The position numbers and the translations under genes are program-made. A stretch of DNA of 64,000 nt from Heptranchias perlo. Its lineage: Eukaryota. Numbering within the stretch: the first letter of the stretch is position 1; every line of letters starts with the position of its first letter. Shown here one piece after another: positions 1-60,095 of the stretch. The notes under the pieces are model-generated. The model saw nothing but the letters and a program-made list of their open reading frames with translations. It was not told the origin of the DNA and made no database searches. The stretch is taken from NCBI RefSeq assembly GCF_035084215.1, contig NC_090370.1, forward strand, positions 25,482,001-25,546,000, written 5' to 3'.

Positions 1-3000
1 TGACAGATACAGAATGAATCCCACACTCACATACATTTTCAGAGACTGACAGATACAGAATGAATTGCACACTCACACAGAGTATCAGAGACTGACAGAT
101 GCAGAATGAATCCCACACTCACATACAGTAGCAGAGACTGACAGATACAGAATGAATCCCACACTCACAAACAGTATCAGACACTGACAGATACAGAATT
201 AACCCCACACTCACACACAGTACCAGAGACTGTCAGATACAGAATGAATCCCACAATCCCACAGAGGATCAGAGACTGACAGACACAGAATGAATCCCAC
301 ACTCACATACAGTATCAGAGACTGACAGATACAGAATGAATCCCACACTCACATACAGTACCAGAGGCTGACAGATACAGAATGAATCCCACACTCACAT
401 ACAGTACCAGAGGCTGACAGATACATAATGAATCCCACAACCCCACAGAGTATCAGAGACTGACAGACACAGAATGAATCCCTCACTCACATACATTGTC
501 AGAGACTGACAGATGCAGAATGAATCCCACACTCGGACACAGAACCAGAGACTGACAGATGCAGAATGAATCCCACACTCACACACTGTATCAGAGACTG
601 ACAGATGCAGAATGAATCCCTCACTCACACACAGTACCAGAGACTGACAGATACAGAATGAATCCCACACTCACACACAGTATCAGAGACTGACAGATAC
701 AGAATGAATTGCACTCTCACACACAGTATCAGAGACTGACAGAAACAGAATGAATCCCACAGTCACACACAGTACCAGAGACTGACAGATGCAGAATGAA
801 TCCCACACTCACATTCAGTACCAGAGACTGACAGATACAGAAATAATCCCACACTCACAAACTGTATCAGAGACTGACAGATACAGAATGAATCCCACAC
901 TCACACACAGTAACAGAGACTGTCAGATGCAGAATGAATCCCACACTCACACACAGTATCAGAGACTGACAGATACAGTAAGAATCCCACACTCACACAC
1001 ATTATCTGAGACTGACAGATACAGAATGAATCCCACACTCACACACTGTATCAGAGACTGACAAATACAGAATGAATCCCACACTCACACACTGCATCAG
1101 AGACTGACAGATGCAGAATGAATCCCTCACTCACACACAGTACCAGAGACTGACAGATACAGAATGAGTCCCACACTCACATACAGTATCAGAGACTGAC
1201 AGATACAGAATAAATCCCACACTCACACACAGTACCAGAGACTGACAGATACAGAATGAATCCCACACTCACATACAGTATCAGAGACTGACAGATACAG
1301 AATGAATGCCACACTCACACACAGTATCAGAGACTGACAGATACAGTAAGAATCCCACACTCACACACAGTATCAGAGACTGACAGAAAAAGAAAGAATC
1401 CCACACTCACGCACAATACCAGAGACTAACAGATACTGAATGAATCCCACACTCACACACAGTACCAGAGACTGACAGATAGAGAATGAATCCCACACTC
1501 ACATGCAGTATCAGAGACTGACAGATGCAGAATGAATCCCACACTCACACACATTATCAGAGACTGACAGATACAGATTGAATCCCACACTCACACACAG
1601 TATCAGAGACTGACAGACACAGAATGAATCCCACACTCACATACAGTTACAGAGACTGACAGATACAGAATGAATCCCACACTCACACACAGTATCAGAC
1701 ACTGACAGAAACAGAATGAATCCCACACTCACACACAGTACCAGAGACTGACAGATACAGAATGAATCCCACACTCACACACAGGACCAGAGACTGACAG
1801 ATACAGAATGAATCCCACACTCACGAACAGTACCAGAGACTGACAGATACAGAATAGATCCCACACTCACATCCATTTTCAGAGACTGTCAGATACAGAA
1901 TGAATCCCACACTCCCACAGAGTATCAGAGACTGACAGACACAGAATGAATCCCACACTCACATACAGTATCAGAGACTGACAGATACAGAATGAATCCC
2001 ACACTCACATACAGTACCAGAGGCTGACAGATACAGAATGAATCCCACACTCACACACAGTATCAGAGACTGTCAGATGCAGAATGAATCCCACACTCAC
2101 ACACTGTACCTGAGACTGACAGATACAGAAATAATCCCACACTCACACACTGTATTAGAGACTGACAGATGCAGAATGAATCCCACACTCACACACAGTA
2201 ACAGAGACTGTCAGATGCAGAATGAATCCCACACTCACACACAGTATCAGAGACTGACAGATACAGTAAGAATCCCACACTCACACACAGTATCAGAGAC
2301 TGACAGATAAAGAAAGAATCCCACACTCACGCACAATACCAGAGACTAACAGATACTGAATGAATCCCACACTCACACACAGTACCAGAGACTGACAGAT
2401 ACAGATTGAATCCCACACTCACACACAGTATCAGAGACTGACAGATACAGAATGAATCCCACACTCACACACAGTATCAGAGACTGTCAGATGCAGAATG
2501 AATCCCACACTCACACACTGTACCTGAGACTGACAGATACAGAATGAATCCCTCACTCACATACATTGTCAGAGACTGACAGATACAGAATGAATCCCAC
2601 ACTCACACACAGTATCTGAGACTGACAGATACAGAATGAATCCCACACTCACACACTGTATCAGAGACTGACAGATGCAGAATGAATCCCTCACTCACAC
2701 ACAGTACCAGAGACTGACAGATACAGAATGAATCCCACACTCACACACAGTATCAGAGACTGACAGATACAGAATGAATTGCACTCTCACACACAGTATC
2801 AGAGACTGACAGAAACAGAATGAATCCCACAGTCACACACAGTACCAGAGACTGACAGATACAGAATGAATCCCACACTCACATACAGTACCAGAGACTG
2901 ACAGATACAGAAATAATCCCACACTCACACACTGTATTAGAGACTGACAGATGCAGAATGAATCCCACACTCACACACAGTACCAGAGACTGACAGATAC

Positions 3001-6000
3001 AGAATGAATCCCACACTCACACACAGTAACAGAGACTGTCAGATGCAGAATGAATCCCACACTCACACACAGTATCAGAGACTGACAGATACAGTAAGAA
3101 TCCCACACTCACACACAGTATCAGAGACTGACAGATAAAGAAAGAATCCCACACTCACGCACAATACCAGAGACTGACAGATATAGAATGAATCCCACAC
3201 TCACATGCAGTATCAGAGACTGACAGATGCAGAATGAATCCCACACTCACACACATTATCAGAGACTGACAGATACAGATTGAATCCCACACTCACACAC
3301 AGTATCAGAGACTGACAGACACAGAATGAATCCCACACTCACATACAGTTACAGAGACTGACAGATACAGAATGAATCCCACACTCACACACAGTATCAG
3401 ATACTGACAGATACAGAATGAATCCCACACTCACACACAGTACCAGAGACTGACAGATACAGAATGAATCCCACACTCACACACAGTACCAGAGACTGAC
3501 AGATACAGAATGAATCCCACACTCACATACAGTACCAGAGACTGACAGATACAGAATGAATCCCACACTCACACACTGTATCAGAGACTGACAGATGCAG
3601 AATGAATCCCTCACTCACACAAAGTACCAGAGACTGACAGATACAGAATGAGTCCCACACGCACATACAGTATCAGAGACTGACAGATACAGAATAAATC
3701 CCACACTCACACACAGTACCAGAGACTGACAGATACAGAATGAATCCCACACTCACATACAGTATCAGAGACTGACAGATACAGAATGAATCCCACACTC
3801 ACACACAGTATCAGAGACTGACAGATACAGTAAGAATCCCACACTCACACACAGTATCAGAGACTGACAGAAAAAGAAAGAATCCCACACTCACGCACAA
3901 TACCAGAGACTAACAGATACTGAATGAATCCCACACTCACACACAGTACCAGAGACTGACAGATATAGAATGAATCCCACACGCACGTACAGTACCAGAG
4001 ACTGACAGATACAGAAATAATCCCACACTCACACACTGTATCAGAGACTGACAGATGCAGAATGAATCCCACACTCACACACAGTACCAGAGACTAACAG
4101 ATACAGAATGAATCCCACACTCACACACAGTGACAGAGACTGTCAGATGCAGAATGAATCCCACAGCCAACAGAGTATCAGAGACTGACAGACACAGAAT
4201 GAATCCCACACTCACACACAGTACCAGAGACTGACAGATCCAGAATTAATCTCACACTCACATACAGTAACAGATACTGACAGATACAGAATGAATACCA
4301 CACTCACACACAGTACCAGAGACTGACAGATACAGAATGAATACCACACTCACGCACAGTACCAGAGACTGACAGATCTTGAATGAATCCCAAACTCTCA
4401 CACTGTGCCAGAGACTGACAGACACAGAATGAATTGCACACTCACGCACAGGATCAGAGACTGACAGGTACAGAATGAATCACACACTCACCTGCAGTAT
4501 CAGAGATTGCCACATACAGAATGAATCCCACATTCACACACAGTACCAGAGACTGACAGATACAGAATGAATCGCACACTCACATGCAGTATCTGAGATT
4601 GACAGATACAGAATGAGTCCCACACTCACATGCAGTATCTGAGATTGACAGATACAGAATGAGTCCCACACTCACATACAGTATCAGAGACTGACAGATA
4701 CTGAATGAATCCCACACTCACACACAGTACCAGAGACTGACAGACACAGAATGAATCCCACACTCACATGCAGTTACAGAGACTGACAGATACAGAATGA
4801 ATCCCACACTCACACACAGTATCAGATACTGACAGATACAGAATGAATCCCACACTCACACACAGTACCAGAGACTGACAGATACAGAATGAATCCCACA
4901 CTCACACACAGTACCAGAGACTGACAGATACAGAATGAATCCCACACTCACATACAGTACCAGAGACTGACAGATACAGAATGAATCCCACACTCACATA
5001 CATTTTCAGAGACTGACAGATACAGAATGAATTGCACACTCACACAGAGTATCAGAGACTGACAGATGCAGAATGAATCCCACACTCACATACAGTAGCA
5101 GAGACTGACAGATACAGAATGAATCCCACACTCACAAACAGTATCAGACACTGACAGATACAGAATTAACCCCACACTCACACACAGTACCAGAGACTGT
5201 CAGATACAGAATGAATCCCACAATCCCACAGAGGATCAGAGACTGACAGACACAGAATGAATCCCACACTCACATACAGTATCAGAGACTGACAGATACA
5301 GAATGAATCCCACACTCACATACAGTACCAGAGGCTGACAGATACAGAATGAATCCCACACTCACATACAGTACCAGAGGCTGACAGATACATAATGAAT
5401 CCCACAACCCCACAGAGTATCAGAGACTGACAGACACAGAATGAATCCCTCACTCACATACATTGTCAGAGACTGACAGATGCAGAATGAATCCCACACT
5501 CGGACACAGAACCAGAGACTGACAGATGCAGAATGAATCCCACACTCACACACTGTATCAGAGACTGACAGATGCAGAATGAATCCCTCACTCACACACA
5601 GTACCAGAGACTGACAGATACAGAATGAATCCCACACTCACACACAGTATCAGAGACTGACAGATACAGAATGAATTGCACTCTCACACACAGTATCAGA
5701 GACTGACAGAAACAGAATGAATCCCACAGTCACACACAGTACCAGAGACTGACAGATGCAGAATGAATCCCACACTCACATTCAGTACCAGAGACTGACA
5801 GATACAGAAATAATCCCACACTCACAAACTGTATCAGAGACTGACAGATACAGAATGAATCCCACACTCACACACAGTAACAGAGACTGTCAGATGCAGA
5901 ATGAATCCCACACTCACACACAGTATCAGAGACTGACAGATACAGTAAGAATCCCACACTCACACACATTATCTGAGACTGACAGATACAGAATGAATCC

Positions 6001-9000
6001 CACACTCACACACTGTATCAGAGACTGACAAATACAGAATGAATCCCACACTCACACACTGCATCAGAGACTGACAGATGCAGAATGAATCCCTCACTCA
6101 CACACAGTACCAGAGACTGACAGATACAGAATGAGTCCCACACTCACATACAGTATCAGAGACTGACAGATACAGAATAAATCCCACACTCACACACAGT
6201 ACCAGAGACTGACAGATACAGAATGAATCCCACACTCACATACAGTATCAGAGACTGACAGATACAGAATGAATGCCACACTCACACACAGTATCAGAGA
6301 CTGACAGATACAGTAAGAATCCCACACTCACACACAGTATCAGAGACTGACAGAAAAAGAAAGAATCCCACACTCACGCACAATACCAGAGACTAACAGA
6401 TACTGAATGAATCCCACACTCACACACAGTACCAGAGACTGACAGATAGAGAATGAATCCCACACTCACATGCAGTATCAGAGACTGACAGATGCAGAAT
6501 GAATCCCACACTCACACACATTATCAGAGACTGACAGATACAGATTGAATCCCACACTCACACACAGTATCAGAGACTGACAGACACAGAATGAATCCCA
6601 CACTCACATACAGTTACAGAGACTGACAGATACAGAATGAATCCCACACTCACACACAGTATCAGACACTGACAGAAACAGAATGAATCCCACACTCACA
6701 CACAGTACCAGAGACTGACAGATACAGAATGAATCCCACACTCACACACAGGACCAGAGACTGACAGATACAGAATGAATCCCACACTCACGAACAGTAC
6801 CAGAGACTGACAGATACAGAATAGATCCCACACTCACATCCATTTTCAGAGACTGTCAGATACAGAATGAATCCCACACTCCCACAGAGTATCAGAGACT
6901 GACAGACACAGAATGAATCCCACACTCACATACAGTATCAGAGACTGACAGATACAGAATGAATCCCACACTCACATACAGTACCAGAGGCTGACAGATA
7001 CAGAATGAATCCCACACTCACACACAGTATCAGAGACTGTCAGATGCAGAATGAATCCCACACTCACACACTGTACCTGAGACTGACAGATACAGAATGA
7101 ATCCCTCACTCACATACATTGTCAGAGACTGACAGATACAGAATGAATCCCACACTCATACACAGAACCAGAGACTGACAGATGCAGAATGAATCCCACA
7201 CTCAAACACATTATCTGAGACTGACAGATACAGAATGAATCCCACACTCACACACTGTATCAGAGACTGACAGATGCAGAATGAATCCCACACTCACACA
7301 CAGTACCAGAGACTGACAGATACAGAATGAATCCCACACTCACACACAGTATCAGAGACTGACAGATACAGAATGAATTGCACTCTCACACACAGTATCA
7401 GAGACTGACAGAAACAGAATGAATCCCACAGTCACACACAGTACCAGAGACTGACAGATACAGAATGAATCCCACACTCACATACAGTACCAGAGACTGA
7501 CAGATACAGAAATAATCCCACACTCACACACTGTATTAGAGACTGACAGATGCAGAATGAATCCCACACTCACACACAGTAACAGAGACTGTCAGATGCA
7601 GAATGAATCCCACACTCACACACAGTATCAGAGACTGACAGATACAGTAAGAATCCCACACTCACACACAGTATCAGAGACTGACAGATAAAGAAAGAAT
7701 CCCACACTCACGCACAATACCAGAGACTAACAGATACTGAATGAATCCCACACTCACACACAGTACCAGAGACTGACAGATACAGATTGAATCCCACACT
7801 CACACACAGTATCAGAGACTGACAGATACAGAATGAATCCCACACTCACACACAGTATCAGATACTGACAGATACAGAATGAATCCCACACTCACACACA
7901 GTACCAGAGACTGACAGATACAGAATGAATCCCACACTCACACACAGTACCAGAGACTGACAGATACAGAATGAATCCCACACTCACACACAGTATCAGA
8001 GACTGACAGATACAGTAAGAATCCCACACTCACACACAGTATCAGAGACTGACAGATAAAGAAAGAATCCCACACTCACGCACAATACCAGAGACTAACA
8101 GATACTGAATGAATCCCACACTCACATACAGTACCAGAGACTGACAGATACAGAATGAATCCCACACTCACATACATTTTCAGAGACTGACAGATACAGA
8201 ATGAATTGCACACTCACACAGAGTATCAGAGACTGACAGATGCAGAATGAATCCCACACTCACAAACAGTATCAGACACTGACAGATGCAGAATTAACCC
8301 CACACTCACACACAGTACCAGAGACTGTCAGATACAGAATGAATCCCACAATCCCACAGAGTATCAGAGACTGACAGACACAGAATGAATCCCACACTCA
8401 CATACAGTATCAGAGACTGACAGATACAGAATGAATCCCACACTCACATACAGTACCAGAGGCTGACAGATACAGAATGAATCCCACACTCACATACAGT
8501 ACCAGAGGCTGACAGATACATAATGAATCCCACAACCCCACAGAGTATCAGAGACTGACAGACACAGAATGAATCCCTCACTCACATACATTGTCAGAGA
8601 CTGACAGATGCAGAATGAATCCCACACTCGGACACAGAACCAGAGACTGACAGATGCAGAATGAATCCCACACTCACACACTGTATCAGAGACTGACAGA
8701 TGCAGAATGAATCCCTCACTCACACACAGTACCAGAGACTGACAGATACAGAATGAATCCCACACTCACACACAGTATCAGAGACTGACAGATACAGAAT
8801 GAATTGCACTCTCACACACAGTATCAGAGACTGACAGAAACAGAATGAATCCCACAGTCACACACAGTACCAGAGACTGACAGATACAGAATGAATCCCA
8901 CACTCACATTCAGTACCAGAGACTGACAGATACAGAAATAATCCCACACTCACAAACTGTATCAGAGACTGACAGATACAGAATGAATCCCACACTCACA

Positions 9001-12000
9001 CACAGTAACAGAGACTGTCAGATGCAGAATGAATCCCACACTCACACACAGTATCAGAGACTGACAGATACAGTAAGAATCCCACACTCACACACATTAT
9101 CTGAGACTGACAGATACAGAATGAATCCCACACTCACACACTGTATCAGAGACTGACAAATACAGAATGAATCCCACACTCACACACTGCATCAGAGACT
9201 GACAGATGCAGAATGAATCCCTCACTCACACACAGTACCAGAGACTGACAGATACAGAATGAGTCCCACACTCACATACAGTATCAGAGACTGACAGATA
9301 CAGAATAAATCCCACACTCACACACAGTACCAGAGACTGACAGATACAGAATGAATCCCACACTCACATACAGTATCAGAGACTGACAGATACAGAATGA
9401 ATGCCACACTCACACACAGTATCAGAGACTGACAGATACAGTAAGAATCCCACACTCACACACCGTATCAGAGACTGACAGAAAAAGAAAGAATCCCACA
9501 CTCACGCACAATACCAGAGACTAACAGATACTGAATGAATCCCACACTCACACACAGTACCAGAGACTGACAGATAGAGAATGAATCCCACACTCACATG
9601 CAGTATCAGAGACTGACAGATGCAGAATGAATCCCACACTCACACACATTATCAGAGACTGACAGATACAGATTGAATCCCACACTCACACACAGTATCA
9701 GAGACTGACAGACACAGAATGAATCCCACACTCACATACAGTTACAGAGACTGACAGATACAGAATGAATCCCACACTCACACACAGTATCAGACACTGA
9801 CAGAAACAGAATGAATCCCACACTCACACACAGTACCAGAGACTGACAGATACAGAATGAATCCCACACTCACACACAGGACCAGAGACTGACAGATACA
9901 GAATGAATCCCACACTCACGAACAGTACCAGAGACTGACAGATACAGAATGAATCCCACACTCACATCCATTTTCAGAGACTGTCAGATACAGAATGAAT
10001 CCCACACTCCCACAGAGTATCAGAGACTGACAGACACAGAATGAATCCCACACTCACATACAGTATCAGAGACTGACAGATACAGAATGAATCCCACACT
10101 CACATACAGTACCAGAGGCTGACAGATACAGAATGAATCCCACACTCACACACAGTATCAGAGACTGTCAGATGCAGAATGAATCCCACACTCACACACT
10201 GTACCTGAGACTGACAGATACAGAATGAATCCCTCACTCACATACATTGTCAGAGACTGACAGATACAGAATGAATCCCACACTCATACACAGAACCAGA
10301 GACTGACAGATGCAGAATGAATCCCACACTCAAACACATTATCTGAGACTGACAGATACAGAATGAATCCCACACTCACACACTGTATCAGAGACTGACA
10401 GATGCAGAATGAATCCCACACTCACACACAGTACCAGAGACTGACAGATACAGAATGAATCCCACACTCACACACAGTATCAGAGACTGACAGATACAGA
10501 ATAAATTGCACTCTCACACACAGTATCAGAGACTGACAGAAACAGAATGAATCCCACAGTCACACACAGTACCAGAGACTGACAGATACAGAATGAATCC
10601 CACACTCACATACAGTACCAGAGACTGACAGATACAGAAATAATCCCACACTCACACACTGTATTAGAGACTGACAGATGCAGAATGAATCCCACACTCA
10701 CACACAGTAACAGAGACTGTCAGATGCAGAATGAATCCCACACTCACACACAGTATCAGAGACTGACAGATAAAGAAAGAATCCCACACTCACGCACAAT
10801 ACCAGAGACTAACAGATACTGAATGAATCCCACACTCACACACAGTACCAGAGACTGACAGATATAGAATGAATCCCACACTCACATGCAGTATCAGAGA
10901 CTGACAGATGCAGAATGAATCCCACACTCACACACATTATCAGAGACTGACAGATACAGATTGAATCCCACACTCACACACAGTATCAGAGACTGACAGA
11001 CACAGAATGAATCCCACACTCACATACAGTTACAGAGACTGACAGATACAGAATGAATCCCACACTCACACACAGTATCAGATACTGACAGATACAGAAT
11101 GAATCCCACACTCACACACAGTACCAGAGACTGACAGATACAGAATGAATCCCACACTCACACACAGTACCAGAGACTGACAGATACAGAATGAATCCCA
11201 CACTCACACACAGTATCAGAGACTGACAGATACAGTAAGAATCCCACACTCACACACAGTATCAGAGACTGACAGATAAAGAAAGAATCCCACACTCACG
11301 CACAATACCAGAGACTAACAGATACTGAATGAATCCCACACTCACACACAGTACCAGAGACTGACAGATATAGAATGAATCCCACACTCACATGCAGTAT
11401 CAGAGACTGACAGATGCAGAATGAATCCCACACTCACACACAGTATCAGAGACTGACAGACACAGAATGAATCCCGCACTCACATACAGTTACAGAGACT
11501 GACAGATACAGAATGAATCCCACACTCACACACAGTATCAGATACTGACAGATACAGAATGAATCCCACACTCACACACAGTACCAGAGACTGACAGATA
11601 CAGAATGAATCCCACACTCACGCACAATACCAGAGACTAACAGATACTGAATGAATCCCACACTCACACACAGGACCAGAGACTGACAGATAGAGAATGA
11701 ATCCCACACTCACATGCAGTATCAGAGACTGACAGATGCAGAATGAATCCCACACTCACACACATTATCAGAGACTGACAGATACAGATTGAATCCCACA
11801 CTCACACACAGTATCAGAGACTGACAGACACAGAATGAATCCCACACTCACATACAGTTACAGAGACTGACAGATACAGAATGAATCCCACACTCACACA
11901 CAGTATCAGACACTGACAGATGCAGAATGAATCCCACACTCACACACAGTATCAGAGACTGACAGATACAGAATGAATCCCACACTCACACACAGTACCA

Positions 12001-15000
12001 GAGACTGACAGATACAGAATGAATCCCACACTCACAAACAGTAGCAGAGACTGACAGATACAGAATGAATCCCACAATCACATACAGTAGCAGAGACTGA
12101 CAGATACAGAATGAATCCCACACTCACAAACAGTATCAGACACTGACAGATACAGAATTAACCCCACACTCACACACAGTTCCAGAGACTGTCAGATACA
12201 GAATGAATCCCACACTCCCACAGAGTATCAGAGACTGACAGACACAGAATGAATCCCACACTCACATACAGTATCAGAGACTGACAGATACAGAATGAAT
12301 CCCACACTCACATACAGTACCAGAGGCTGACAGATACAGAATGAATCCCACACTCACACACAGTATCAGAGACTGTCAGATGCAGAATGAATCCCACACT
12401 CACACACTGTACCTGAGACTGACAGATACAGAATGAATCCCTCACTCACATACATTGTCAGAGACTGACAGATACAGAATGAATCCCACACTCATACACA
12501 GAACCAGAGACTGACAGATGCAGAATGAATCCCACACTCAAACACATTTTCTGAGACTGACAGATACAGAATGAATCCCACACTCACACACTGTATCAGA
12601 GACTGACAGATGCAGAATGAATCCCTCACTCACACACAGTACCAGAGACTGACAGATACAGAATGAATCCCACACTCACACACAGTATCAGAGACTGACA
12701 GATACAGAATGAATTGCACTCTCACACACAGTATCAGAGACTGACAGAAACAGAATGAATCCCACAGTCACACACAGTACCAGAGACTGACAGATACAGA
12801 ATGAATCCCACACTCACATACAGTACCAGAGACTGACAGATACAGAAATAATCCCACACTCACACACTGTATTAGAGACTGACAGATGCAGAATGAATCC
12901 CACACTCACACACAGTACCAGAGACTGACAGATACAGAATGAATCCCACACTCACACACAGTAACAGAGACTGTCAGATGCAGAATGAATCCCACACTCA
13001 CACACAGTATCAGAGACTGACAGATACAGTAAGAATCCCACACTCACACACAGTACCAGAGACTGACAGATACAGAATGAATCCCACACTCACAAACAGT
13101 AGCAGAGACTGACAGATACAGAATGAATCCCACACTCACACACAGTATCAGTGACTGACAGATAAAGAAAGAATCCCACACTCACGCACAATACCAGAGA
13201 CTGACAGATATCGAATGAATCCCACACTCACATGCAGTATCAGAGACTGACAGATGCAGAATGAATCCCACACTCACACACATTATCAGAGACTGACAGA
13301 TACAGATTGAATCCCACACTCACACACAGTATCAGAGACTGACAGACACAGAATGAATCCCACACTCACATACAGTTACAGAGACTGACAGATACAGAAT
13401 GAATCCCACACTCACACACAGTATCATATACTGACAGATACAGAATGAATCCCACACTCACACACAGTACCAGAGACTGACAGATACAGAATGAATCCCA
13501 CACTCACACACAGTACCAGAGACTGACAGATACAGAATGAATCCCACACTCACATACAGTACCAGAGACTGACAGATACAGAATGAATCCCACACTCACA
13601 TACATTTTCAGAGACTGACAGATACAGAATGAATTGCACACTCACACACTGTATCAGAGACTGACAGATGCAGAATGAATCCCTCACTCACACACAGTAC
13701 CAGAGACTGACAGATACAGAATGAGTCCCACACTCACATACAGTATCAGAGACTGACAGATACAGAATAAATCCCACACTCACACACAGTACCAGAGACT
13801 GACAGATACAGAATGAATCCCACACTCACATACAGTATCAGAGACTGACAGATACAGAATGAATCCCACACTCACACACAGTATCAGAGACTGACAGATA
13901 CAGTAAGAATCCCACACTCACACACAGTATCAGAGACTGACAGAAAAAGAAAGAATCCCACACTCACGCACAATACCAGAGACTAACAGAAACTGAATGA
14001 ATCCCACACTCACACACAGTACCAGAGACTGACAGATACAGAATGAATCCCACACTCACATGCAGTATCAGAGACTGACAGACACAGAATGAATCCCACT
14101 CTCACATACAGTTACAGAGACTGACAGATACAGAATGAATCCCACACTCACACACAGTATCAGACACTGACAGATACAGAATGAATCCCACACTCACACA
14201 CAGTACCAGAGACTGACAGATACAGAATGAATCCCACACTCACACACAGTACCAGAGACTGACAGATACAGAATGAATCCCACACTCACATACAGTACCA
14301 GAGACTGACAGATACAGAATGAATCCCACACTCACATACATTTTCAGAGACTGACAGATACAGAATGAATTGCACACTCACACAGAGTATCAGAGACTGA
14401 CAGATGCAGAATGAATCCCACACTCACACACAGTACCAGAGACTGACAGATGCAGAATGAATCCCACACTCACAAACAGTATCAGACACTGACAGATACA
14501 GAATTAACCCCACACTCACACACAGTACCGGAGACTGTCAGATACAGAATGAATCCCACACTCCCACAGAGTATCAGAGACTGACAGATACAGAATGAAT
14601 CCCACACTCACATACAGTACCAGAGGCTGACAGTTACAGAATAAATCCCACACTCACACACAGTAACAGAGACTGTCAGATGCAGATTGAATCCCACACT
14701 TACACACAGTATCAGAGACTGACAGACACAGAATGAATCCCACACTCACATACAGTTACAGAGACTGACAGATACAGAAATAATCCCACACTCACACACT
14801 GTATCAGAGACTGACAGATGCAGAATGAATCCCAAACTCACACACAGTACCAGAGACTGACAGATACAGAATGAATCCCACACTCACATGCAGTACCAGA
14901 GACTGACAGATACAAAATGAATCCCACACTCACATACAGTACCAGAGACTGACAGATACAGAAATAATCCCACACTCACACACTGTATCAGAGACTGACA

Positions 15001-24000: not shown

Positions 24001-27000
24001 TGAGACTGACAGATGCAGAATGAATCCCACACTCACACACAGTATCAGAGACTGACAGATACAGAATGAATCCCACACTCACACACAGTATCTGAGACTG
24101 ACAGATGCAGAATGAATCCCACACTCACACACAGTATCAGAGACTGACAGATACAGAATGAATCCCACACTCACACACAGTACCAGAGACTGACATATAC
24201 AGAATGAATCCCACACTCACACACAGTATCAGAGACTGACAGATGCAGAATGAATCCCACACTCACACACAGTACCAGAGACTGACAGATACAGAATGAA
24301 TCCCACACTCACATACATCATCAGAGACTGACAGATACAGGATGAATCCCACACTCACACACAGTATCAGAGACTGACAGATACAGAATTAATCCCACAC
24401 TCACACACAGGACCAGAGACTGACAGACACAGATGGAATCCCACACTCACATACATTATCAGAGACTGACAGATACAGAATGAATCCCACACTCACACAC
24501 AGTAGCAGAAACTGACAGATACAGAATGAATTCCAAACTCACACACAATACCAGAGACTGACAGATACAGAATGAATCCCACACTCACACACAATACCAG
24601 AGACTGACAGATGCAGAATGAATCCCACACTCACACACAGAACCAGAGACTGACAGATACAGAATGAATCCCACACTCACATACAGAATCAGAGACTGAC
24701 AGATACAGAATGAATCCCACACTCACACACAGTATCAGAGACTGACAGATACAGAATTAATCCCACACTCACACACAGTACCAGAGACTGACAGATATTG
24801 AATGAATCCCACACTCACATGCAGTATCAGAGACTGACAGATGCAGAATGAATCCCAAACTCACACACAGTACCAGAGACTGACAGATACAGAATGAATC
24901 CCACACTCACATACAGTACCGGAGACTGACAGATACAGAATGAATCCCACACTCACAGACAGTACCAGAGACTGACAGACACAGAATGAATCCCACACTC
25001 ACAGACAATGTCAGAGACTGACAGAAACAGAATGAATCCCACACTCACATACATTATCAGAAACTGACAGATACATAATGAATCCCACACTCACACACAG
25101 TATCAGAGACTGACAGATGCAGAATGAATCCCACACTCACATACATTATCAGAAACTGACAGATGCAGAATGAATCCCACACACACACAGTACCAGAGAC
25201 TGACAGACGCAGAATGAACCCCACACTCACATCCAGTATCTGAGATTGACAGATGCAGAATGAATCCCACACTCACGTACAATATCAGAGACTGACAGAC
25301 ACAGAATGAATTGCACACTCACACACAGTATCAGAGATTGACACAAAAAAATGAATCCCACATGCACACAGTACCAGAGACTGACAGATACAGAATGAAT
25401 CCCACACTCACACACAGTATCAGAGATTGACACAAAAAAATGAATCCCACATGCACACAGTATCAGAGACTGACAGATACAGAATGAATCCCACACTCAC
25501 ACACAGTATCAGAGACTGACAGATACAGAATGAATCCCACACTCACATACAGTACCAGAGAATGACAGATACAGAATGAATCCCACACTCACACACAGTA
25601 CCAGAGACTGACAGATACAGAAGGAATCCCAAACTCACACACAGTATCTGAGATTGACAGATACAGAATGAATCCCACACTCACGTACAATATCAGAGAC
25701 TGACAGATACATAATGAATCCCACACTCACACACAGTACCAGAGACTGACAGATGCAGAATGAATCCCACTCTCACATGCAGTATCAGAGACTGACAGAT
25801 ACAGAATGAATCCCAAACTCACACACTGTATCAGAGATTGACAGATGCAGAATGAATCCCACACTCACAGACAGTAACAGAGACTGACAGATACAGAATG
25901 AATCCCACACTCACACACAGCACCAGAGACTGACAGATACAGAATGAATCCCACACTCACACACAGTGTCAGAGACTGACAGATACAGAATGAATCCCAC
26001 ACTCACACACAGTTTCAGAGACTGACAGATACAGAATGAATCCCACACTCACATACCGTATCAGAGACTGACAGATACAGAATGAATCCCACACTCACAT
26101 GCAGTATCAGAGACTGACAGATGCAGAATAAATCCCGCACTCACACAAAGTATCAGAGACTGACAGATACAGAATGAATCCCACACTCACACACTGTATT
26201 AGAGACTGACAGATACAGAATGAATCCCACACTCACACACATGATCAGAGACTGACAGATACAGAATGAATCCCACACTCACATACAGTTGCAGAGACTG
26301 ACAGATACAGAATGAATCCCACACTCACACACAGTATCAGAGACTGTCAGATACAGAATGAATCCCACACTCACATACAGTACCAGAGGCTGACAGATAC
26401 AGAATGAATCCCACACTCACACACAGTATCAGAGACTGTCAGATACAGAATGAATCCCACACTCACATACAGTACCAGAGGCTGACAGATACAGAATGAA
26501 TCCCACACTCACACACAGTATCAGAGACTGTCAGATGCAGAATGAATCCCACACTCACACACTGTCCCTGATACTGACAGATACAGAATGAATCCCTCAC
26601 TCACATGCATTGTCAGAGACTGACAGATACAGAATGAATCCCACACTCACACACTGGACCTGAGACTGACAGATGCAGAATGAATCCCACACTCACATAC
26701 ATTGTCAGATACTGACAGATACAGAATGAATCCCACACTCACACACAGTACCAGAGACTGACAGATATTGAATGAATCCCACACTCACGTCCAGTACCAG
26801 AGACTGATAGATACAGAATGAATCCCACACTCACACACAGTATCAGAGACTGACAGACACAGAAAGAATCCCACACTCACACACAGTGCCAGAGACTGAA
26901 AGATGCAGAAAGAACCCCACACTCACACACAGTACCAGAGACTGTCAGATACAGAATGAATCCCACACTCCCTCAGAGTATCAGAGACTGACAGATACAG

Positions 27001-30000
27001 AATGAATCCCACACTCACATACAGTATCAGAGACTGACAGATACAGAATGAATCCCACACTCACACACAGTAACAGAGACTGACAGATGCAGAATGAATC
27101 CCACACTCACACAAAGTACTGGAGACTGACAGATACAGAATGAATCCCACACTCACACACATTATCAGAGACTGACAGATACAGAATGAATCCCACACTC
27201 ACACACATTGTCAGAGACTGACAGATACAGATTGAATCCCACACTCACACACAGTATCAGAGACTGACAGATACAGAATGAATCCCACACTCACATTCAG
27301 TTGCAGAGACTGACAGATGCAGAATGAATCCCACACTCACATACAGGAACAGAGGCTGACAGATGCAGAATGAATCCCACACTCAAACACATTATCAGAG
27401 ACTGACAGATACAGAATGAATCCCACTCTGACATGCAGTATCAGAGACTGACAGATACAGAATGAATCCCAAACTCACACACAGTATCAGAGACTGACAG
27501 ATACAGAATGAATCCCACACTAACACACAGTACCAGAGACTGACAGATACATAATGAATCCCACACTCACATACGGTACCAGAGACTGACAGATACAGAA
27601 TGAATCCCACACTCACACACTGTATCAGAGACTGACAGATGCAGAATGAATCCCACACTCACAGACAGTAACAGAGACTGACAGATACAGAATGAATCCC
27701 ACACTCACACACAGTATCAGAGACTGACAGATACAGAATGAATTGCACGCTCACACACAGTATCAGAGACTGACAGAAACAGAATGAATCCCACAGACAC
27801 GCACAGTACCAGAGACTGACAGATACAGAATGAATCCCACACTCACATACAGTACCAGAGACTGACAGATACAGAAAGAATCCCACACTCACACACTGTA
27901 TCAGAGACTGACAGATGCAGAATGAATCCCACACTCACACACAGTACCAGAGACTGACAGATACAGAATGAATCCCACACTCACACGCAGTATCAGAGAC
28001 TGTCAGATGCAGAATGAATCCCACACTCACACACTGTACCTGAGACTGACAGATACAGAATGAATCCCAAACTCACACACAGTACCAGAGACTGACAGAT
28101 GCAGAATGAATCCCACACTCACACACAGTATCAGAGACTGACAGGTACAGAATGAATCCCACACTCACACACAGTATCAGAGACTGACAGATACAGAATG
28201 AATCCCACACTCACACACAGTACCAGAGACTGACAGATATTGAATGAATCCCACACTCACATACAGTATCAGAGACTGACAGATGCAGAATGAATCCCAA
28301 ACTCACACACAGTTCCAGAGACTGACAGATACAGGATGAATCCCACACTCAAACACATTATCAGAGACTGACAGATACAGAATGAATCCCACACTCACAT
28401 CCAGTACCAGAGACTGACAGATGCAGAATGAATGCCACACTCACACACTGTATCAGAGACTGACAGATGCAGAATGAATCCCACACTCACACACAGTACC
28501 AGAGACTGACAGATACATAATGAATCCCACACTCACACACAGTACCAGAGACTGACAGATACAGAATGAATCCCACACTCACATGCAGTACCAGAGACTG
28601 ACAGATACAGAATGAATCCCACACTCACATACGTTTTCAGAGACTGACAGATACAGAATGAATTGCACACTCACACACAGTGCCAGAGACTGAAAGATAC
28701 AGAAAGAACCCCACACTCACACACAGTACCAGAGACTGACAGATACAGAATGAATCCCACACTCACATACATTTTCAGAGACTGACAGATACAGAATGAA
28801 TCCCACACTCACATACATTTTCAGAGACTGACAGATACAGAATGAATCCCACACTCACACACAGTACCAGAGACTGACAGATGCAGAATGAATCCCACAC
28901 TCACATGCAGTGCCAGAGACTGAAAGATACAGAAAGAACCCCACACTCACACACAGTACCAGAGACTGTCAGACACAGAATGAATCCCACACTCACACAC
29001 AGTATCAGAGACTGACAGATGGAGAATGAATCCCACACTCACACACAGTATCAGAGACTGACAGATACAGAATGAATCCCACACTCACACACAGTATCAG
29101 AGACTGACAGATACAGAAAGAATCCCACACTCACACACAGTGCCAGAGACTGAAAGATACAGAATGAATCCCACACTCACACACAGCACCAAAGACTGAC
29201 AGATACAGAATGAATCCCACACTCACATACAGTATCAGAGACTGACAGATACAGAATGAATCCCACACTCACACACAGTACCAGAGACTGACAGATACAG
29301 AATGAATCCCACACTCACATACAGTATCAGAGACTGACAGATGCAGAATGAATCCCACACTCACACCAAGTACTAGAGACTGACAGATACAGAATGAATC
29401 CCACACTCACACACATTATCAGAGACTGACAGATACAGATTGAATCCCACACTCACACACAGTATCAGAGACTGACAGATACAGAATGAATCCCACACTC
29501 ACATTCAGTTGCAGAGACTGACAGATGCAGAAAGAATCCCACACTCACATCCTGTACCTGAGACTGACAGATACAGAATAAATCCCTCACTCACATACAT
29601 TGTCAGAGACTGACAGATACAGAATGAATCCCACACTCACATACATTATCAGAGACTGACAGAGACAGAATGAATCCCACACTCACACACAGTACCAGAG
29701 AGTGACAGATACAGAATGAATCCCACACTCACACACAGTTTCAGAGACTGACAGATACAGAATGAATTGCAAGCTCACACACAGTATCAGAGACTGACAG
29801 AAACAGAATGAATCCCACACTCACACACAGTACCAGAGACTGACAGATACAGAATGAATCCCACACTCACATACAGTACCAGAGACTGACAGATACAGAA
29901 TGAATCCCACACTCACATGCATTTTCAGAGACTGACAGATACAGAATGAATCCCACACTCACATACATTTTCAGAGACTGACAGATACAGAATGAATCCC

Positions 30001-33000
30001 ACACTCACATGCAGTATCAGAGACTGACAGATGCAGAATAAATCCCACACTCACACAAAGTACTGGAGACTGACAGATACAGAATGAATCCCACACTCAC
30101 ACACAGTATCAGAGACTGACAGATACAGAATGAATCCCACACTCACATACAGTTGCAGAGACTGACAGATACAGAATGAATCCCACACTCACATACAGTA
30201 CCAGAGGCTGACAGATGCAGAATGAATCCCACACTCACACACTGTACCTGATACTGACAGATACAGAATGAATCCCACACTCACATACATTGTCAGAGAC
30301 TGACAGATACAGAATGAATCCCACACTCACACACAGTACCAGAGACTGACAGATATTGAATGAATCCCACACTCACATACAGTTTCAGAGACTTACAGAT
30401 ACAGAATGAATCCCACACTCACACACAGTACCAGAGACTGACAGATATTGAATGAATCCCACACTCACATACAGTACCAGAGACTGATAGATACAGAATG
30501 AATCCCACACTCACACACAGTATCAGAGACTGACAGATACAGAATGAATCCCACACTCAAACACAGTGCCAGAGACTGAAAGATACAGAATGAATCCCAC
30601 TCTGACATGCAGTATCAGAGACTGACAGATACAGAATGAATCCCAAACTCACACACAGTATCAGAGACTGACAGATACAGAATGAATCCCACACTAACAC
30701 ACAGTACCAGAGACTGACAGATACATAATGAATCCCACACTCACAGACAGTAACAGAGACTGACAGATACAGAATGAATCCCACACTCACACACAGTATC
30801 AGAGACTGACAGATACAGAATGAATTGCACGCTCACACACAGTATCAGAGACTGACAGAAACAGAATGAATCCCACAGACACGCACAGTACCAGAGACTG
30901 ACAGATACAGAATGAATCCCACACTCACATCCAGTACCAGAGACTGACAGATACAGAAAGAATCCCACACTCACACACTGTATCAGAGACTGACAGATGC
31001 AGAATGAATCCCACACTCACACACAGTACCAGAGACTGACAGATACAGAATGAATCCCACACTCACACGCAGTATCAGAGACTGTCAGATGCAGAATGAA
31101 TCCCACACTCACACACTGTACCTGAGACTGACAGATACAGAATGAATCCCAAACTCACACACAGTACCAGAGACTGACAGATGCAGAATGAATCCCACAC
31201 TCACACACAGTATCAGAGACTGACAGGTACAGAATGAATCCCACACTCACACACAGTATCAGAGACTGACAGATACAGAATGAATCCCACACTCACACAC
31301 AGTACCAGAGACTGACAGATATTGAATGAATCCCACACTCACATACAGTATCAGAGACTGACAGATGCAGAATGAATCCCAAACTCACACACAGTTCCAG
31401 AGACTGACAGATACAGGATGAATCCCACACTCAAACACATTATCAGAGACTGACAGATACAGAATGAATCCCACACTCACATACAGTACCAGAGACTGAC
31501 AGATGCAGAATGAATGCCACACTCACACACTGTATCAGAGACTGACAGATGCAGAATGAATCCCACACTCACACACAGTACCAGAGACTAACAGATACAT
31601 AATGAATCCCACACTCACACACAGCACCAGAGACTGACAGATACAGAATGAATCCCACACTCACATGCAGTACCAGAGACTGACAGATACAGAATGAATC
31701 CCACACTCACATACGTTTTCAGAGACTGACAGATACAGAATGAATTGCACACTCACACACAGTGCCAGAGACTGAAAGATACAGAAAGAACCCCACACTC
31801 ACACACAGTACCAGAGACTGACAGATACAGAATGAATCCCACACTCACATACATTTTCAGAGACTGACAGATACAGAATAAATCCCACACTCACATACAT
31901 TTTCAGAGACTGACAGATACAGAATGAATCCCACACTCACACACAGTACCAGAGACTGACAGATGCAGAATGAATCCCACACTCACATACAGTGCCAGAG
32001 ACTGAAAGATACAGAAAGAACCCCACACTCACACACAGTACCAGAGACTGTCAGACACAGAATGAATCCCACACTCAGACACAGTATCAGAGACTGATAG
32101 ATGGAGAATGAATCCCACACTCACACACAGTATCAGAGACTGATAGATACAGAATGAATCCCAGACTCACATACATTTTCAGAGACTGACAGATACATAA
32201 TGAATCCCACACTCACATACAGTACCAGAGACTGACAGATGCAGAATGAATCCCACACTCACACACAGCACCAAAGACTGACAGATACAGAATGAATCCC
32301 ACACTCACATACAGTATCAGAGACTGACAGATACAGAATGAATCCCACACTCACACACAGTACCAGAGACTGACAGATACAGAATGAATCCCACACTCAC
32401 ATACAGTATCAGAGACTGACAGATGCAGAATGAATCCCACACTCACACCAAGTACTGGAGACTGACAGATACAGAATGAATCCCACACTCACACACATTA
32501 TCAGAGACTGACAGATACAGATTGAATCCCACACTCACACACAGTATCAGAGACTGACAGATACAGAATGAATCCCACACTCACATTCAGTTGCAGAGAC
32601 TGACAGATGCAGAAAGAATCCCACACTCACATCCTGTACCTGAGACTGACAGATACAGAATAAATCCCTCACTCACATACATTGTCAGAGACTGACAGAT
32701 ACAGAATGAATCCCACACTCACATACATTATCAGAGACTGACAGATACAGAATGAATCCCACACTCACACACAGTACCAGAGAGTGACAGATACAGAATG
32801 AATCCCACACTCACACACTGTATCAGAGACTGACAGATGCAGAATGAATCCCACACTCACACACAGTGCCAGAGACTGACAGATACAGAATGAATCCCAC
32901 ACTCACACACAGTTTCAGAGACTGACAGATACAGAATGAATTGCAAGCTCACACACAGTATCAGAGACTGACAGAAACAGAATGAATCCCACACTCACAC

Positions 33001-34820
33001 ACAGTACCAGAGACTGACAGATACAGAATGAATCCCACACTCACATACAGTACCAGAGACTGACAGATACAGAATGAATCCCACACTCACATACATTTTC
33101 AGAGACTGACAGATACAGAATGAATCCCACACTCACATACATTTTCAGAGACTGACAGATACAGAATGAATCCCACACTCACATGCAGTATCAGAGACTG
33201 ACAGATGCAGAATAAATCCCACACTCAAACAAAGTACTGGAGACTGACAGATACAGAATGAATCCCACACTCACACACAGTATCAGAGACTGACAGATAC
33301 AGAATGAATCCCACACTCACATACAGTTGCAGAGACTGACAGATACAGAATGAATCCCACACTCACATACAGTACCAGAGGCTGACAGATGCAGAATGAA
33401 TCCCACACTCACACACTGTACCTGATACTGACAGATACAGAATGAATCCCACACTCACATACATTGTCAGAGACTGACAGATACAGAATGAATCCCACAC
33501 TCACACACAGTACCAGAGACTGACAGATATTGAATGAATCCCACACTCACATACAGTTTCAGAGGCTTACAGATACAGAATGAATCCCACACTCACACAC
33601 AGTCCCAGAGACTGACAGATATTGAATGAATCCCACACTCACATACAGTACCAGAGACTGATAGATACAGAATGAATCCCACACTCACACACAGTATCAG
33701 AGACTGACAGATACAGAAAGAATCCCACACTCACACACAGTGCCAGAGACTGAAAGATGCAGAAAGAATCCCACACTCACACACAGTACCAGAGACTGTC
33801 AGATACAGAATGAATCCCACACTCCCACAGAGTATCAGAGACTGACAGATACAGAATGAATCCCACACTCACATACAGTATCAGAGACTGACAGATACAG
33901 AATGAATCCCACACTCACACACAGTACCAGAGACTGACAGATGCAGAATGAATCCCACACTCATACTAAGTACTGGAGACTGACAGATACAGAATGAATC
34001 CCACACTCACACACATTATCAGAGACTGACAGATACAGAATGAAACCCACACTCACATTCAGTTGCAGAGACTGACAGATGCAGAATGAATCCCAAACTT
34101 ACATCCTGTACCAGAGACTGACAGATACAGAATGAATCCCTCACTCACATACATTGTCAGAGACTGACAGATGCAGAATGAATCCCACACTCACATACAT
34201 TATCAGAGACTGACAGATGCAGAATGAATCCCACACTCACACACAGTCCCAGAGACTGACAGATACAGAATGAATCCCACACTCACACACAGTACCAGAG
34301 AGTGACAGATACAGAATGAATCCCACACTCACACACTGTATCAGAGACTGACAGATGCAGAATGAATCCCACACTCACACACAGTACCAGAGACTGACAG
34401 ATACAGAATGAATCCCACACTCACATACAGTACCAGAGACTGACAGATACAGAATGAATCCCACACTCACATACATTTTCAGAGACTGACAGATACAGAA
34501 TGAATTGCACACACACACAGAGTATCAGAGACTGACAGATGCAGAATGAATCCCACACTCACATACAGTATCAGAGACTGACAGATACAGAATGAATCCC
34601 ACACTCACATACATTATCAGAGACTGACAGATGCAGAATGAATCCCACACTCACACACAGCACCAGAGACTGACAGATACAGAATGAATCCCACACTCAC
34701 ACACAGTTACAGAGACTGACAGATACAGAATGAATCCCACACTCACATGCATTATCAGAGACTGACAGATGCAGCATGAATCCCACACTCACACACAGTA
34801 CCAGAGACTGAGAGATACAA
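1..34820. repeat. 46-bp tandem satellite array (~750 monomers), consensus TGACAGATACAGAATGAATCCCACACTCACACACAGTAYCAGAGAC; open at left window edge
   Basis: TGACAGA recurs at 1, 47, 93 and onward (period 46) with no non-repeat interruption until ~34820. Plus strand is A/C-rich and almost free of CpG. Confidence 0.99.
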
Positions 34821-37015
34821 AGTGAATCTCATCGTCACCTGCATTTGTGCAGGCTGAGTTCCAAATTACATAGCAAAGCAAAAATCTCACAGTTGTTGAT
34901 TGAAAGTTACCATCTCAATTCCATCAATGCAGGCTTAGTTGCACATTTGGTACCAGTCCAAAAATCTCTTACAGTATCAGACTGATAGATACAGTGTCAA
35001 TTTCTTTAGTGCAGGATAAGCTACATATTACATACCAGTCCAAACATCTCATACAGTGTCAGACGCAGATAGAGAATTAATCCAATTATTGCAGACTGAA
35101 CTGCACATTGCATACCAGTCCAGTAATTTCACTGTGAACATATTGAAAGATACATTATCATTCACAATAGATTTCAGAGATTAAGATGTAACACTACTCC
35201 AAAACTCACACACATTGTTTGATTAACGAAAATCGAAAAGTAATCCCTATTTACAAATTAAATACTCGAAAAAGAACTGTATATATTTTAAAGTATTAAA
35301 GATACAGTTTCAAATAAGGTACTGTAAACTGAAATAAGAATATGGAATGAATTCACACTTGCACATTGTCTCAGAGACTGAATTACAGAATGAATCCCTG
35401 ACTGAGATAAAGTAGCAGAGAATGGCAGATACAGAATGACTGACAGATGCAGAATATACCCCATGCTCACAGTCAGTACCAGAGACTGACAGATGCAGAA
35501 TGAATCCCACACTCACATACATTATCAGAGACTGACAGATGCAGAATGAATCCCACACTCACACACAGTCCCAGAGACTGACAGATACAGAATGAATCCC
35601 ACACTCACACACAGTACCAGAGAGTGACAGATACAGAATGAATCCCACACTTACACACTGTATCAGAGACTGACAGATGCAGAATATACCCCATGCTCAC
35701 AGTCAGTACCAGAGACTGACAGATATAGAATGAATCCTACACTCACATACAGTACCAGGAAAAGAATGAATCTCACTCATGCACAGTACCAGGGACTGAC
35801 AGATACAGAATGAATCTCACACTCACAAACAGTACCAGAGACTGACAGATTCAGAATGAATCACACACTCACATACAGTGTCAGAGACTGACAGATACAG
35901 AATGAATCTCACATTCACATTACTGCAGACTGAGCTGCACATTACATACCAGTCCAAAAATCTCATCGGGTCAGATTGAAAGATATCGTATCAATTCCTT
36001 TGGTGCAGACTGAGCTACATATTTGATATATTGGTAAGTGCTCGTGTTATACTGAAATAAACATTATCAATGCCATTGGTACAGACTGAGCTATTTCTTA
36101 CATACGAGTCCAAAAATCAAATAAATGATCAGACTGAAAGATATACTCTAAATTCTATTAGCACCATCTGAGCTAAATATTATATAACAGTCCAACAATC
36201 TCATACAATATTGGACTGAAAGATACAGTATCGATTCCATCAGTGCAGACTGAGCCACACATTATACAACAGTCCAAGAATGTCATCGGCCTATCAGACT
36301 CAAAGATACAATATCAATTCCATTAGCACAGACTGAGCTATATGTTACTCACCAGTCCAAAAATCTTATACAGTGTTTGACTCAGATACAGAATTAATCC
36401 CATTGTTGCAGACTGAACTACACATTACATACCAGTCCATAATTTCAACGTGAACAGATTGAAAGGTACATTATCATTCACAATAGAGTTCAGAGATTAA
36501 ATGAAATACTACTCCAAAACTCACACACATTGTTTGATTAAAGAAAATCGAAAAGTGTATCCATATTAACAAATTAAATACTCGACAAAGAACTGCATAT
36601 ACTTTGAAGTGGTAAAGATATAGTTTCAAATACAATATTCTAAACTGAAATAAGAATCTAGAATGAATCCAGACTTGCACATTGTCTCAGAGACTGAATT
36701 ACAGAATGAAACCCTCACTCAGATAAAGTAGCAGAGAATGGCAGATACAGAATGTATCCCCCACACACACAGACAGTACCAGACACTGACAGGCACAGAA
36801 TTATGCCCACACTCACATAAAGCACCAGGGACTGACAGATACAGAACGAATCCATCACTTATATATAGTAGCTGAGACTGACTGATGCAGAATATACCCC
36901 ATGCTCACACTCAGTTCCAGAGACTGACAGATACAGAATGAATCCCAAACTCACACACAGTACCAGAGACTGACAGATACACAATAAACCCCACTCTCAC
37001 ATCCAGTACCAGAGA
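34821..37015 (+). repeat. Degenerate satellite flank (module A): alternating ~81-bp repeats, AT-rich linker and short 46-mer tracts
   Basis: Units like CAGACTGAGCTACACATTACATACCAGTCCAAAAATCTC alternate with 46-mers at ~35400-35920 and ~36690-37015. 35040-35430 resembles 36370-36760 (internal duplication). Confidence 0.85.
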
Positions 37016-37047
37016 CTGGCATCTACTGGACGTAAGCGAGAACTGTA
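37016..37047 (-). promoter_or_regulatory. CTCF-like site (core plus upstream motif) at the end of a satellite tract
   Basis: Reverse strand reads TACAGTTC-TCGCTTACGT-CCAGTAGATGCCAG, resembling the CTCF core CCASYAGRKGGCR with a TGCAG-type upstream module. Confidence 0.6.
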
Positions 37048-37479: not shown

Positions 37480-37750
37480 AATGTAACACAGCATTACAAC
37501 TAATGTTTGGTCTAACAAAATGTACTTGCAGCTCGTCTCCATTCCCAGTTTTTCTAAATCCCACTCGTGCAATATAATGTGAAGAATTAGTTTCTGTTCT
37601 GTCCCTCTCTCATCTGCAAACTTCACTGTCCCGGGGTTTGGGGACATCTACTGGCCGGAAGCAGAACTGCAACAGTTCGGAACAAATTGCTGAAACCGGA
37701 CAATGTGCAGTGTGAGCGTGTTTGTGATTGGTGGCAGGTACTAAATCAGA
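37480..37750 (+). promoter_or_regulatory. Truncated H2B upstream module A with CTCF-like site (37640-37671, minus); no H2B gene follows
   Basis: Near-identical to 42370-42526 joined to 43209-43320. Similarity ends at CTAAATCAGA (~37750). Confidence 0.85.
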
Positions 37751-38234: not shown

Positions 38235-38325
38235 TCAAATCCTTGAAGGACCCAGAATCAGTGTGATGTTTACTCCACCCGAGGCACAAGGAGCAGTCAG
38301 TGCAGCCAGCTCCTTCTCACACACA
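38235..38325 (+). other. Putative non-coding internal exon (orphan copy)
   Basis: Acceptor TTTTCTTCCTACAG and donor GTAAGT. Both splice signals are retained in the inverted paralog at 51122-51208. Confidence 0.5.

Positions 38326-44599: not shown

Positions 44600-45411
<812 letters not shown>

Positions 45412-55979: not shown

Positions 55980-56300
<321 letters not shown>

Positions 56301-57053: not shown

Positions 57054-57674
<621 letters not shown>

Positions 57675-59654: not shown

Positions 59655-60095
<441 letters not shown>

Follow-up and report, generated by a model that had tools for sequence, protein, structure and literature searches.

A giant 46-bp satellite array in a histone-linked module of the shark Heptranchias perlo and its probable growth from a short tract

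The stretch of the Heptranchias perlo genome analyzed here (64,000 nucleotides, hereafter the window) corresponds to positions 25,482,001-25,546,000 of a contig that we call C49, in a genome of 3.25 Gb, and combines a long array of 46-bp tandem repeats with a histone locus carrying intact genes for H2B, H2A, H1, H4, H3, H2A and H2B. The closest named relatives of its H1 bear the label Heptranchias perlo, a sevengill shark, with other sharks and rays next in order. Set among such histone genes is a recurrent module with the order CpG-rich promoter, exon 1, exon 2, 46-bp tract, segment resembling an 82-bp repeat, further tracts and H2B-upstream block; the window contains the right part of one copy, module A, and an inverted copy, module C (Table 1). 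The array fills the first 46-bp tract of this multi-copy module, and we consider it probable, with appreciable room for doubt, that it grew in an ancestral copy which was then duplicated together with its flanks, the tract lying in the predicted second intron of a spliced and likely non-coding transcript.

Extent and internal structure of the array

Tandem Repeats Finder reports a period of 46 at 1-34828 of the window, with 757.4 copies and 89% match. On fetching 100 kb leftwards, the array was found to reach 52.1 kb beyond the window's left end, to position 7867 of the fetched locus (L006), so that the whole spans 87.0 kb (C49:25,429,867-25,516,829) and comprises 1,891 monomers without any N. 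The first-pass annotation, which put it at more than 34.8 kb, fell well short of the full length. The monomer is 46 bp long in 1,861 of the 1,891 cases and occurs in 498 types, with about 94% identity to the mode along the array. Identical blocks of five monomers repeat at lags of 108, 84, 62, 68, 25 and 148 monomers, each lag being restricted to one part of the array, and no single array-wide higher-order repeat was found across the 87.0 kb. In its long head-to-tail succession of a fixed monomer, its homogenization and its local multi-monomer duplications the array is satellite DNA. The left 200 monomers form a separate domain and rare variants are nearly absent at the right end, a combination suggesting that growth was polar, with the left edge frozen and the right end homogenized.

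Origin of the array and its sister copies

Both edges of the array have counterparts in module C. At the right junction, where an altered last monomer passes into the segment resembling the 82-bp repeat, the reported match between 34808-34860 and the reverse complement of 49695-49750 was recovered (47 of 53 columns, above shuffles); it is the top local match in the non-array part of the window (score 79, against 40 for the next non-overlapping one), and its last 43 bases (34818-34860) score 61, the maximum in 100 shuffles being 29. The far-left flank had been predicted to match module C as well, and it aligns with the reverse complement of 50220-52836 in 2259 of 2498 columns (90%). Taken together, the two matches indicate that the array occupies the site of module C's short tract, which indeed consists of about 10 degenerate monomers (49750-50220) with a mean identity of 77% to the modal monomer.

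The collinearity that had been described for modules A and C as far as the H2B promoter is real in patches (74-100%): 279/377 (74%) right of the junction, then 400/448 (89%), 669/732 (91%) and 201/201. However, large indels separate the two across the middle tracts, module A extends only to the H2B-upstream block and is followed by a second exon-2 module, with the intact H2B starting at 43504, and the H2B of module C is a 5' fragment that ends prematurely. To the left of the array, the promoter and exon 1 part (L006 positions ~5800-6315) is identical to that of module C (window 51863-52371) at 501 of 509 positions. Such blocks of 100% (H2B-upstream) and 98% (promoter/exon 1) within modules otherwise about 90% alike point to selection or conversion. 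As a further observation, 35484-35648 in the second tract exactly duplicates array bases 34162-34326 (165 bp, about 3.5 monomers from near the array end), which suggests a recent conversion from the array to its neighbor.

The polarity of the change is read from a tree of 39 left flanks, rooted at its midpoint and with no outside-species root. In this tree the 11 copies with giant arrays form a single clade (support 100/100) nested inside copies with short first tracts of 5-33 monomers, a length found in most of the copies sampled. Left-flank identity to the array follows the same gradation, being 97-100% for ten sister arrays on C49, 93% for short-tract copies on other contigs and 90% for module C, which branches close to the midpoint root. 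Module C has a sister (95%) that lies 100 kb farther left, and the first tract of this sister is disrupted by the insertion of a long interspersed nuclear element (LINE). A short first-tract precursor at the same site is thus found in the outgroup copies, all of these outgroups being paralogs. The rare variants of the array's first 8 monomers tell a comparable story: 24 are shared in register with the sister array L027 and 11 with the short-tract copy L063, and at a shift of one monomer 13-14 are common to the array and L066 or the inverted neighbor, other offsets giving 0-4. Old edge monomers shared in register with short tracts support growth in place, and the earlier proposal that the satellite grew at this site from a short tract stands on these monomers, on the flank match and on the nesting of giant arrays among short-tract modules. 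The companion idea, that the window preserves the states before and after expansion, finds no support, since module C is a distant paralog that branches close to the base of the tree and has a single rare edge variant in register with the array, L063 having 11.

From their left edges the sister arrays remain collinear with the 87.0-kb array for about 6-50 monomers and then diverge. Interior variant monomers are nevertheless largely common to the close sisters (L048, 21/22; L050, 15/22; L054, 15/22), as against 0/46 for L053 and 3/68 for the second-tract array of L019. The 46-mer itself is likely kin to the 82-bp repeat of the module, judging by a local score of 67.4 (maximum 50.4 in 500 shuffles), and this kinship points to a local origin. 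The narrower notion that it is a clean 36-base deletion of the 82-mer gave a marginal fit, the best being 30/46 against a mean of 22.1 and a maximum of 28 in 200 shuffles.

That the expansion was a unique local event is contradicted by the rest of the contig, which holds at least 11 sister arrays along with separately expanded ones. The right junction has 7 further copies at 99-100% on C49 (among 40 of 1,655 candidates scored) and the left junction 10 at 98-100% (among 40 of 2,634), and all 10 left-junction sisters run into array up to the fetched end. The 11 arrays measure approximately 115, 107, 87, 72, 66, 65, 54, 47, 39, 21 and 9.4 kb, the 87- and 9.4-kb ones having been read whole and the other lengths derived from end pairs with interior probes (5/5 satellite). 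An inverted partner module lies 20-24 kb upstream in 10 of the 11 copies and a listed H4 match 41-45 kb upstream in 8 of the 11, which indicates a duplicated cassette; among the matches listed, 25 exact H4 matches at C49:20.7-26.9 Mb are interleaved with the arrays. In L012, L014, L015, L017, L018 and L046 the array is interrupted every 1.6-9 kb by a junction-plus-82-bp segment, implying that array end and flank were tandemly duplicated together.

Beyond these, all 11 samples from C49:26,912,000-27,295,300 (L017, L057, L058, L101-L106, L053 and L040) are satellite on one strand, suggesting one array of ~383 kb that lies about 1 Mb short of the end of the contig, has locally private variants and is a candidate for a centromeric or subterminal block. 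It occupies the same (first) tract and its left flank belongs to the sister clade, with 0-3 variant types per sample in common with the 87.0-kb array. In three members of the sister clade the first tract holds 26-28 monomers and the next one a long array; these next-tract arrays share variants mutually (24/26, 10/22) and hardly any with the 87.0-kb array. The near absence of variant sharing between these other C49 arrays and the 87.0-kb array suggests that expansion recurred. Of 14 other probes along C49, 9 were satellite or partly satellite and 5 were not, and the C49 arrays are estimated to total about 1.3-1.4 Mb.

Genome-wide, exact matches number 287 for an H4 35-mer, 558 for an exon-2 motif and 1,446 for a 75-base satellite stretch, with 100 places listed for each. 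The satellite matches listed on contigs C2 and C3 belong to copies of the module, mostly in the vicinity of histone genes, although L032 (C2:7.02 Mb) is without exon 2 and without histone genes within 10 kb. At 58 loci outside C49 (490 kb), chosen by module matches, a tract of at least 3 copies is present in 54, with a median of 18.65 and a maximum of 79.2 (three tracts touch the locus end); no array of more than 79.2 monomers was found at any of these 58 module-match loci, and every fetched tract outside C49 sits among module parts. One region, C3:141,501,001-141,633,000, consists of a tandem unit of ~31-35 kb with paired modules, degenerate histone genes and tracts of at most 80 monomers. 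Contigs of two organisms (A and B) also match the module; they are shorter than needed to show array length.

These patterns can be assembled into the following scenario. The short tract would be the ancestral state, and growth by unequal exchange or template switching, in blocks of tens of monomers, may have overwritten the middle and right of the old tract while its ~7 leading monomers persisted as fossils. Segmental duplication would then have spread the array, in a cassette with roughly 65-75 kb of flanking sequence, across C49:20.7-26.6 Mb, each array changing in length thereafter (about 9 to 115 kb), and sister modules would have undergone at least two further separate expansions, of which one affected the same tract and another the following tract. 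Several observations weigh against this scenario. The distant clade members have few variants in common with the array (L026, 2/87; L027, 2/40; L029, 2/29; L030, 6/70), as would also be expected had the copies grown in parallel from a small seed that they shared; the polarity of the tree depends on nesting among paralogs that may exchange sequence, as the 98% promoter core and the 100% block between otherwise 90% copies, and the copied 165 bp of the array end, illustrate; and a rough count from the C49 arrays (0.35-0.4 matches per kb) plus the short tracts accounts for ~900 of the 1,446 75-base matches, leaving room for unseen arrays elsewhere.

If the module had been duplicated while its tract was tens of monomers long, the 11 copies could have grown separately, with exchange between neighbors explaining the variants they share. 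Consistent with this, left-edge collinearity in L026-L030 ends after ~6-8 monomers, with only 2-10 variant types common to the array, separate expansions do exist in sister modules, and local copying from the array into a neighboring tract is observed. Yet all 11 clade members are long (at least 9.4 kb), close sisters share most interior variants (21/22, 15/22) as well as 99-100% right junctions, and one expansion at the base of the clade is the simpler account, so that we regard parallel growth as a serious but unlikely possibility. It is improbable that the 46-mer was first a large satellite elsewhere which entered the module, the short tracts being remnants: such tracts are more degenerate, as remnants would be (77% to the mode in module C), the genome-wide count of the 75-base stretch is only partly accounted for and L032 lacks exon 2 and nearby histone genes, but the fetched tracts outside C49 all lie among module parts, the matches listed for C2 and C3 belong to copies of the module, the long arrays occupy nested tips in the tree of left flanks and the 46-mer shows kinship to the 82-bp repeat of the module itself.

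A literal interpretation, in which module C represents this same array before expansion and the array is transcribed by histone read-through as in the newt, draws on the match of both array flanks to module C and on the long satellite tracts separating histone clusters on C49. It is very unlikely, because module C is among the most distant copies sampled, with its single rare edge variant and its own 95% sister, so that its ancestry is largely refuted, and because the nearest intact histone genes face away or lie far off. Finally, long satellites are hard to assemble and the flanks are 97-100% identical, which raises the prospect that assembly has multiplied one or a few genuine arrays into the near-identical copies on C49; as the flanks differ by 1-3% in a tree-like way, monomer order and content differ within tens of monomers of the edge and no N occurs in any fetched locus, we give this hardly any credence. 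Growth in an ancestral copy followed by duplication of the cassette remains the reading that we prefer.

The predicted transcription unit and its histone neighbors

The segment left of the array, mirrored in module C, is CpG-rich (observed/expected 0.72, against 0.05 in the array) and contains motifs that we take to be NRF1-like. Exon 2, of which there are 67 copies among the matches listed, measures 83-91 nt and has AG/GT ends; across distinct copies the acceptor AG is retained in 65/65 and the donor GT in 64/65. Four sequencing runs guessed to be RNA were aligned to 47050-54350, and contigs from two of them join 51207-51867 (X1 and X4) and 51207-51934 (X4) with GT-AG ends on the minus strand, facing the tracts. 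X1 and X4 contigs also contain an exon-2-to-exon-2 joint, whose added base fits exon-2 copies starting with T; among 13 copies of that kind, 9 are second copies in a downstream position, as is the one at window 38235-38325. In the array-bearing copy, whose exon 2 lies at C49:25,428,939-25,429,024, the donor at C49:25,429,025 and the acceptor at window 38234 are intact, predicting a 91.2-kb intron that holds the array.

The module promoter and the predicted spliced exons point into the array, while on its right the nearest intact histone genes (H2B and H2A) face away and on its left the two closest H2A copies are broken. This arrangement disfavors read-through from histone genes, although the contigs give no strand or start; with its own promoter and spliced exons, the module is predicted to carry the array as intronic sequence. 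Under the proposed scenario, the module's promoter would transcribe the array, exon 2 would be spliced to the downstream exon-2 copy over ~91 kb, and the arrays would most likely be tolerated passengers, splicing removing the intronic length.

Certain considerations temper this model. Near exon 2, 30 of 153 other dinucleotides are equally conserved; the RNA status of the runs is a tool's guess (nine runs, shares 0.09-0.18), and X1 and X4 derive from one sample; the short side of the canonical joints is 23-28 letters at 85% likeness, below a 31-letter bridging rule; the joints listed leave 155 others outside; and those observed fit a paralog family rather than one copy, the exon-2-to-exon-2 joint being also explicable by back-splicing. 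As candidates for a coding role, a zinc-finger host gene was rejected, there being no C2H2 motif in 212 kb (132 kb of C3, 20 kb of C1275 and the 60 kb that follow the window on its right), and so was a coding exon 1, whose 48-codon frame at 51909-52052 leads to a longer protein in 0/27 candidates (a weak test). A stricter C2H2 motif was absent from L001-L080, and a looser one gave one isolated match in the left 48 kb. The host transcript is therefore predicted as likely non-coding. A bolder picture would have several hundred spliced non-coding units back-to-back with histone genes, the second intron serving as a satellite nursery that repeatedly grew on one chromosome to arrays of 10-380 kb (over 1 Mb) while still being transcribed and spliced, and the repeat RNA or the array scaffolding the histone locus body or seeding a centromere; we think it rather unlikely.

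The histone locus shows additional structure of its own. The stretch 40614-43946 recurs in inverted form at 60881-64000, continuing to ~25,551,600 in L093, as a copy of the H2B/H2A module with 87-98% identity, indicating that the cluster is made of large inverted repeats. The H2A at 59655-60044 departs from that at 45022 at several conserved residues (for example R to W, Y to D and N to D) and is possibly decaying. Two LINE 3'-end fragments, presumably CR1/L2-like, lie at 58999-59516 and 62707-63222, and at 98% identity represent recent insertions in histone spacers. A 33-bp pyrimidine-rich repeat upstream of H4 (55723-55893, 5.2 copies) seems far longer in the C3 copies (~141,534,000-141,536,400) and, from its sequence, appears to be a second expanding minisatellite of the cluster, and the H3 promoter (57053-57179) contains 2.6 repeats of a 50-bp unit carrying a CCAAT box. 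An Rfam scan of 33000-64000 recovered four histone stem-loops and no other structured RNA.

Table 1. Features of the window, in window coordinates
Feature	Position	Strand	Basis or remark
46-bp monomer array, window part	1..34829	+	right 40% of 87.0-kb array; modal-type monomer 3448-3493
Right junction: altered last monomer passing into 82-bp-repeat-like segment	34808..34860	+	sequence match to module C
Second short 46-bp tract	35438..35920	+	10.8 copies
Third, degenerate 46-bp tract	36742..37018	+	tandem-repeat call
H2B-upstream block	37545..37745	+	201/201 identical to module C 47092-47292
Second exon-2 copy, predicted acceptor exon closing the array-containing intron	38235..38325	+	AG/GT intact, first base T; putative assignment
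82-bp tandem repeat	38808..39685	+	10.8 copies; sequence kin of the 46-mer
Short homogeneous 46-bp tract	39931..40366	+	9.5 copies
Histone H2B, intact, pointing away from array	43504..43878	+	gene call
Histone H2A, intact, stem-loop 45437-45482	45022..45411	+	Rfam
H2B 5' fragment at end of module C	45870..46025	-	sequence comparison
Module C distal 46-bp tract	47818..48409	-	12.8 copies
Module C junction and ~10 degenerate monomers, site equivalent to giant array	49695..50220	-	alignment
Exon 2 of module C	51122..51208	-	87 nt, AG/GT
Exon 1 and CpG-rich promoter of module C (putative start site)	51935..52200	-	faces away from H1
Histone H1	54362..54988	+	gene call
Histone H4	55989..56300	+	gene call
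Histone H3	57264..57674	+	gene call
Histone H2A	59655..60044	-	gene call
Histone H2B	60945..61319	-	gene call

Comparison with known systems

No description of the shark 46-bp repeat, of the module or of a spliced histone-spacer promoter was found in the literature searched, nor is the repeat mentioned in the available portions of PMC10620051 and bioRxiv 10.1101/443036.

The closest parallel in layout is the newt, in which histone clusters are separated by long satellite tracts and the satellite 1 monomer is about 222 bp. A further hallmark of such newt loci is that both strands are transcribed on the lampbrush loops of oocytes, at histone locus bodies. Available passages on Notophthalmus oocytes describe read-through from histone promoters into satellite DNA (PMC11602149; in general terms, PMC5615363), and those of PMC12046345 mention read-through only generally. 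The shark clusters are likewise separated by long tracts of one satellite, the array having intact histone genes to its left and to its right, and to this extent the analogy drawn in the first-pass annotation fits; it fails at the promoter, given that the flanking histone genes face away or are broken and the module has its own. Unlike the newt satellite, moreover, the shark repeat has a monomer of 46 bp and belongs to a module with many unexpanded copies, its growth is traceable on a tree of paralogs, and a separate, predicted spliced promoter faces the array. If the module promoter does transcribe the arrays, satellite RNA at vertebrate histone loci would have a possible explanation other than read-through.

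The origin of the array is comparable to that of CapA, from an intron of NOS1AP, and of satellites derived from ribosomal DNA spacers, such as potato 2D8, for which the accessible sections of the sources (PMC8210747, PMC5615363, PMC8122249) describe how a precursor that was short or single, and lay in non-coding sequence of a gene or gene array, was amplified to a satellite. In cases of that type, as those sections present them, the precursor was traced across species or the satellite left its source, whereas in the shark short and long states coexist at one site among paralogs and every anchored long array stays inside the module. Comparison between species is the usual basis for inferring how a short tract becomes a satellite, whereas this single genome offers the whole series at the same homologous position, from 5-33 monomers through 9 kb and 40-115 kb to probably ~380 kb, ordered by the flank tree and with repeated expansions, so that growth rate, polarity and the link to segmental duplication become directly measurable.

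CharSat01-52 of characiform fish, as portrayed in the consulted part of PMC8210747, is a ~50-bp repeat whose short arrays lie in a non-coding region of a gene, are transcribed and have expanded in one lineage. Its authors there interpret the intronic array as an insertion rather than a source; in the shark, by contrast, the flank tree and fossil edge monomers favor growth in place, and the "library" consists of the paralogs of one genome. A final point of reference is provided by the Drosophila Y fertility genes, whose small exons are separated by satellite-filled giant introns according to the excerpts of PMC6508621 and PMC6508613. Those introns are megabase-sized and belong to single protein-coding genes, whereas the predicted shark intron is ~91 kb long and its host is multi-copy and apparently non-coding.

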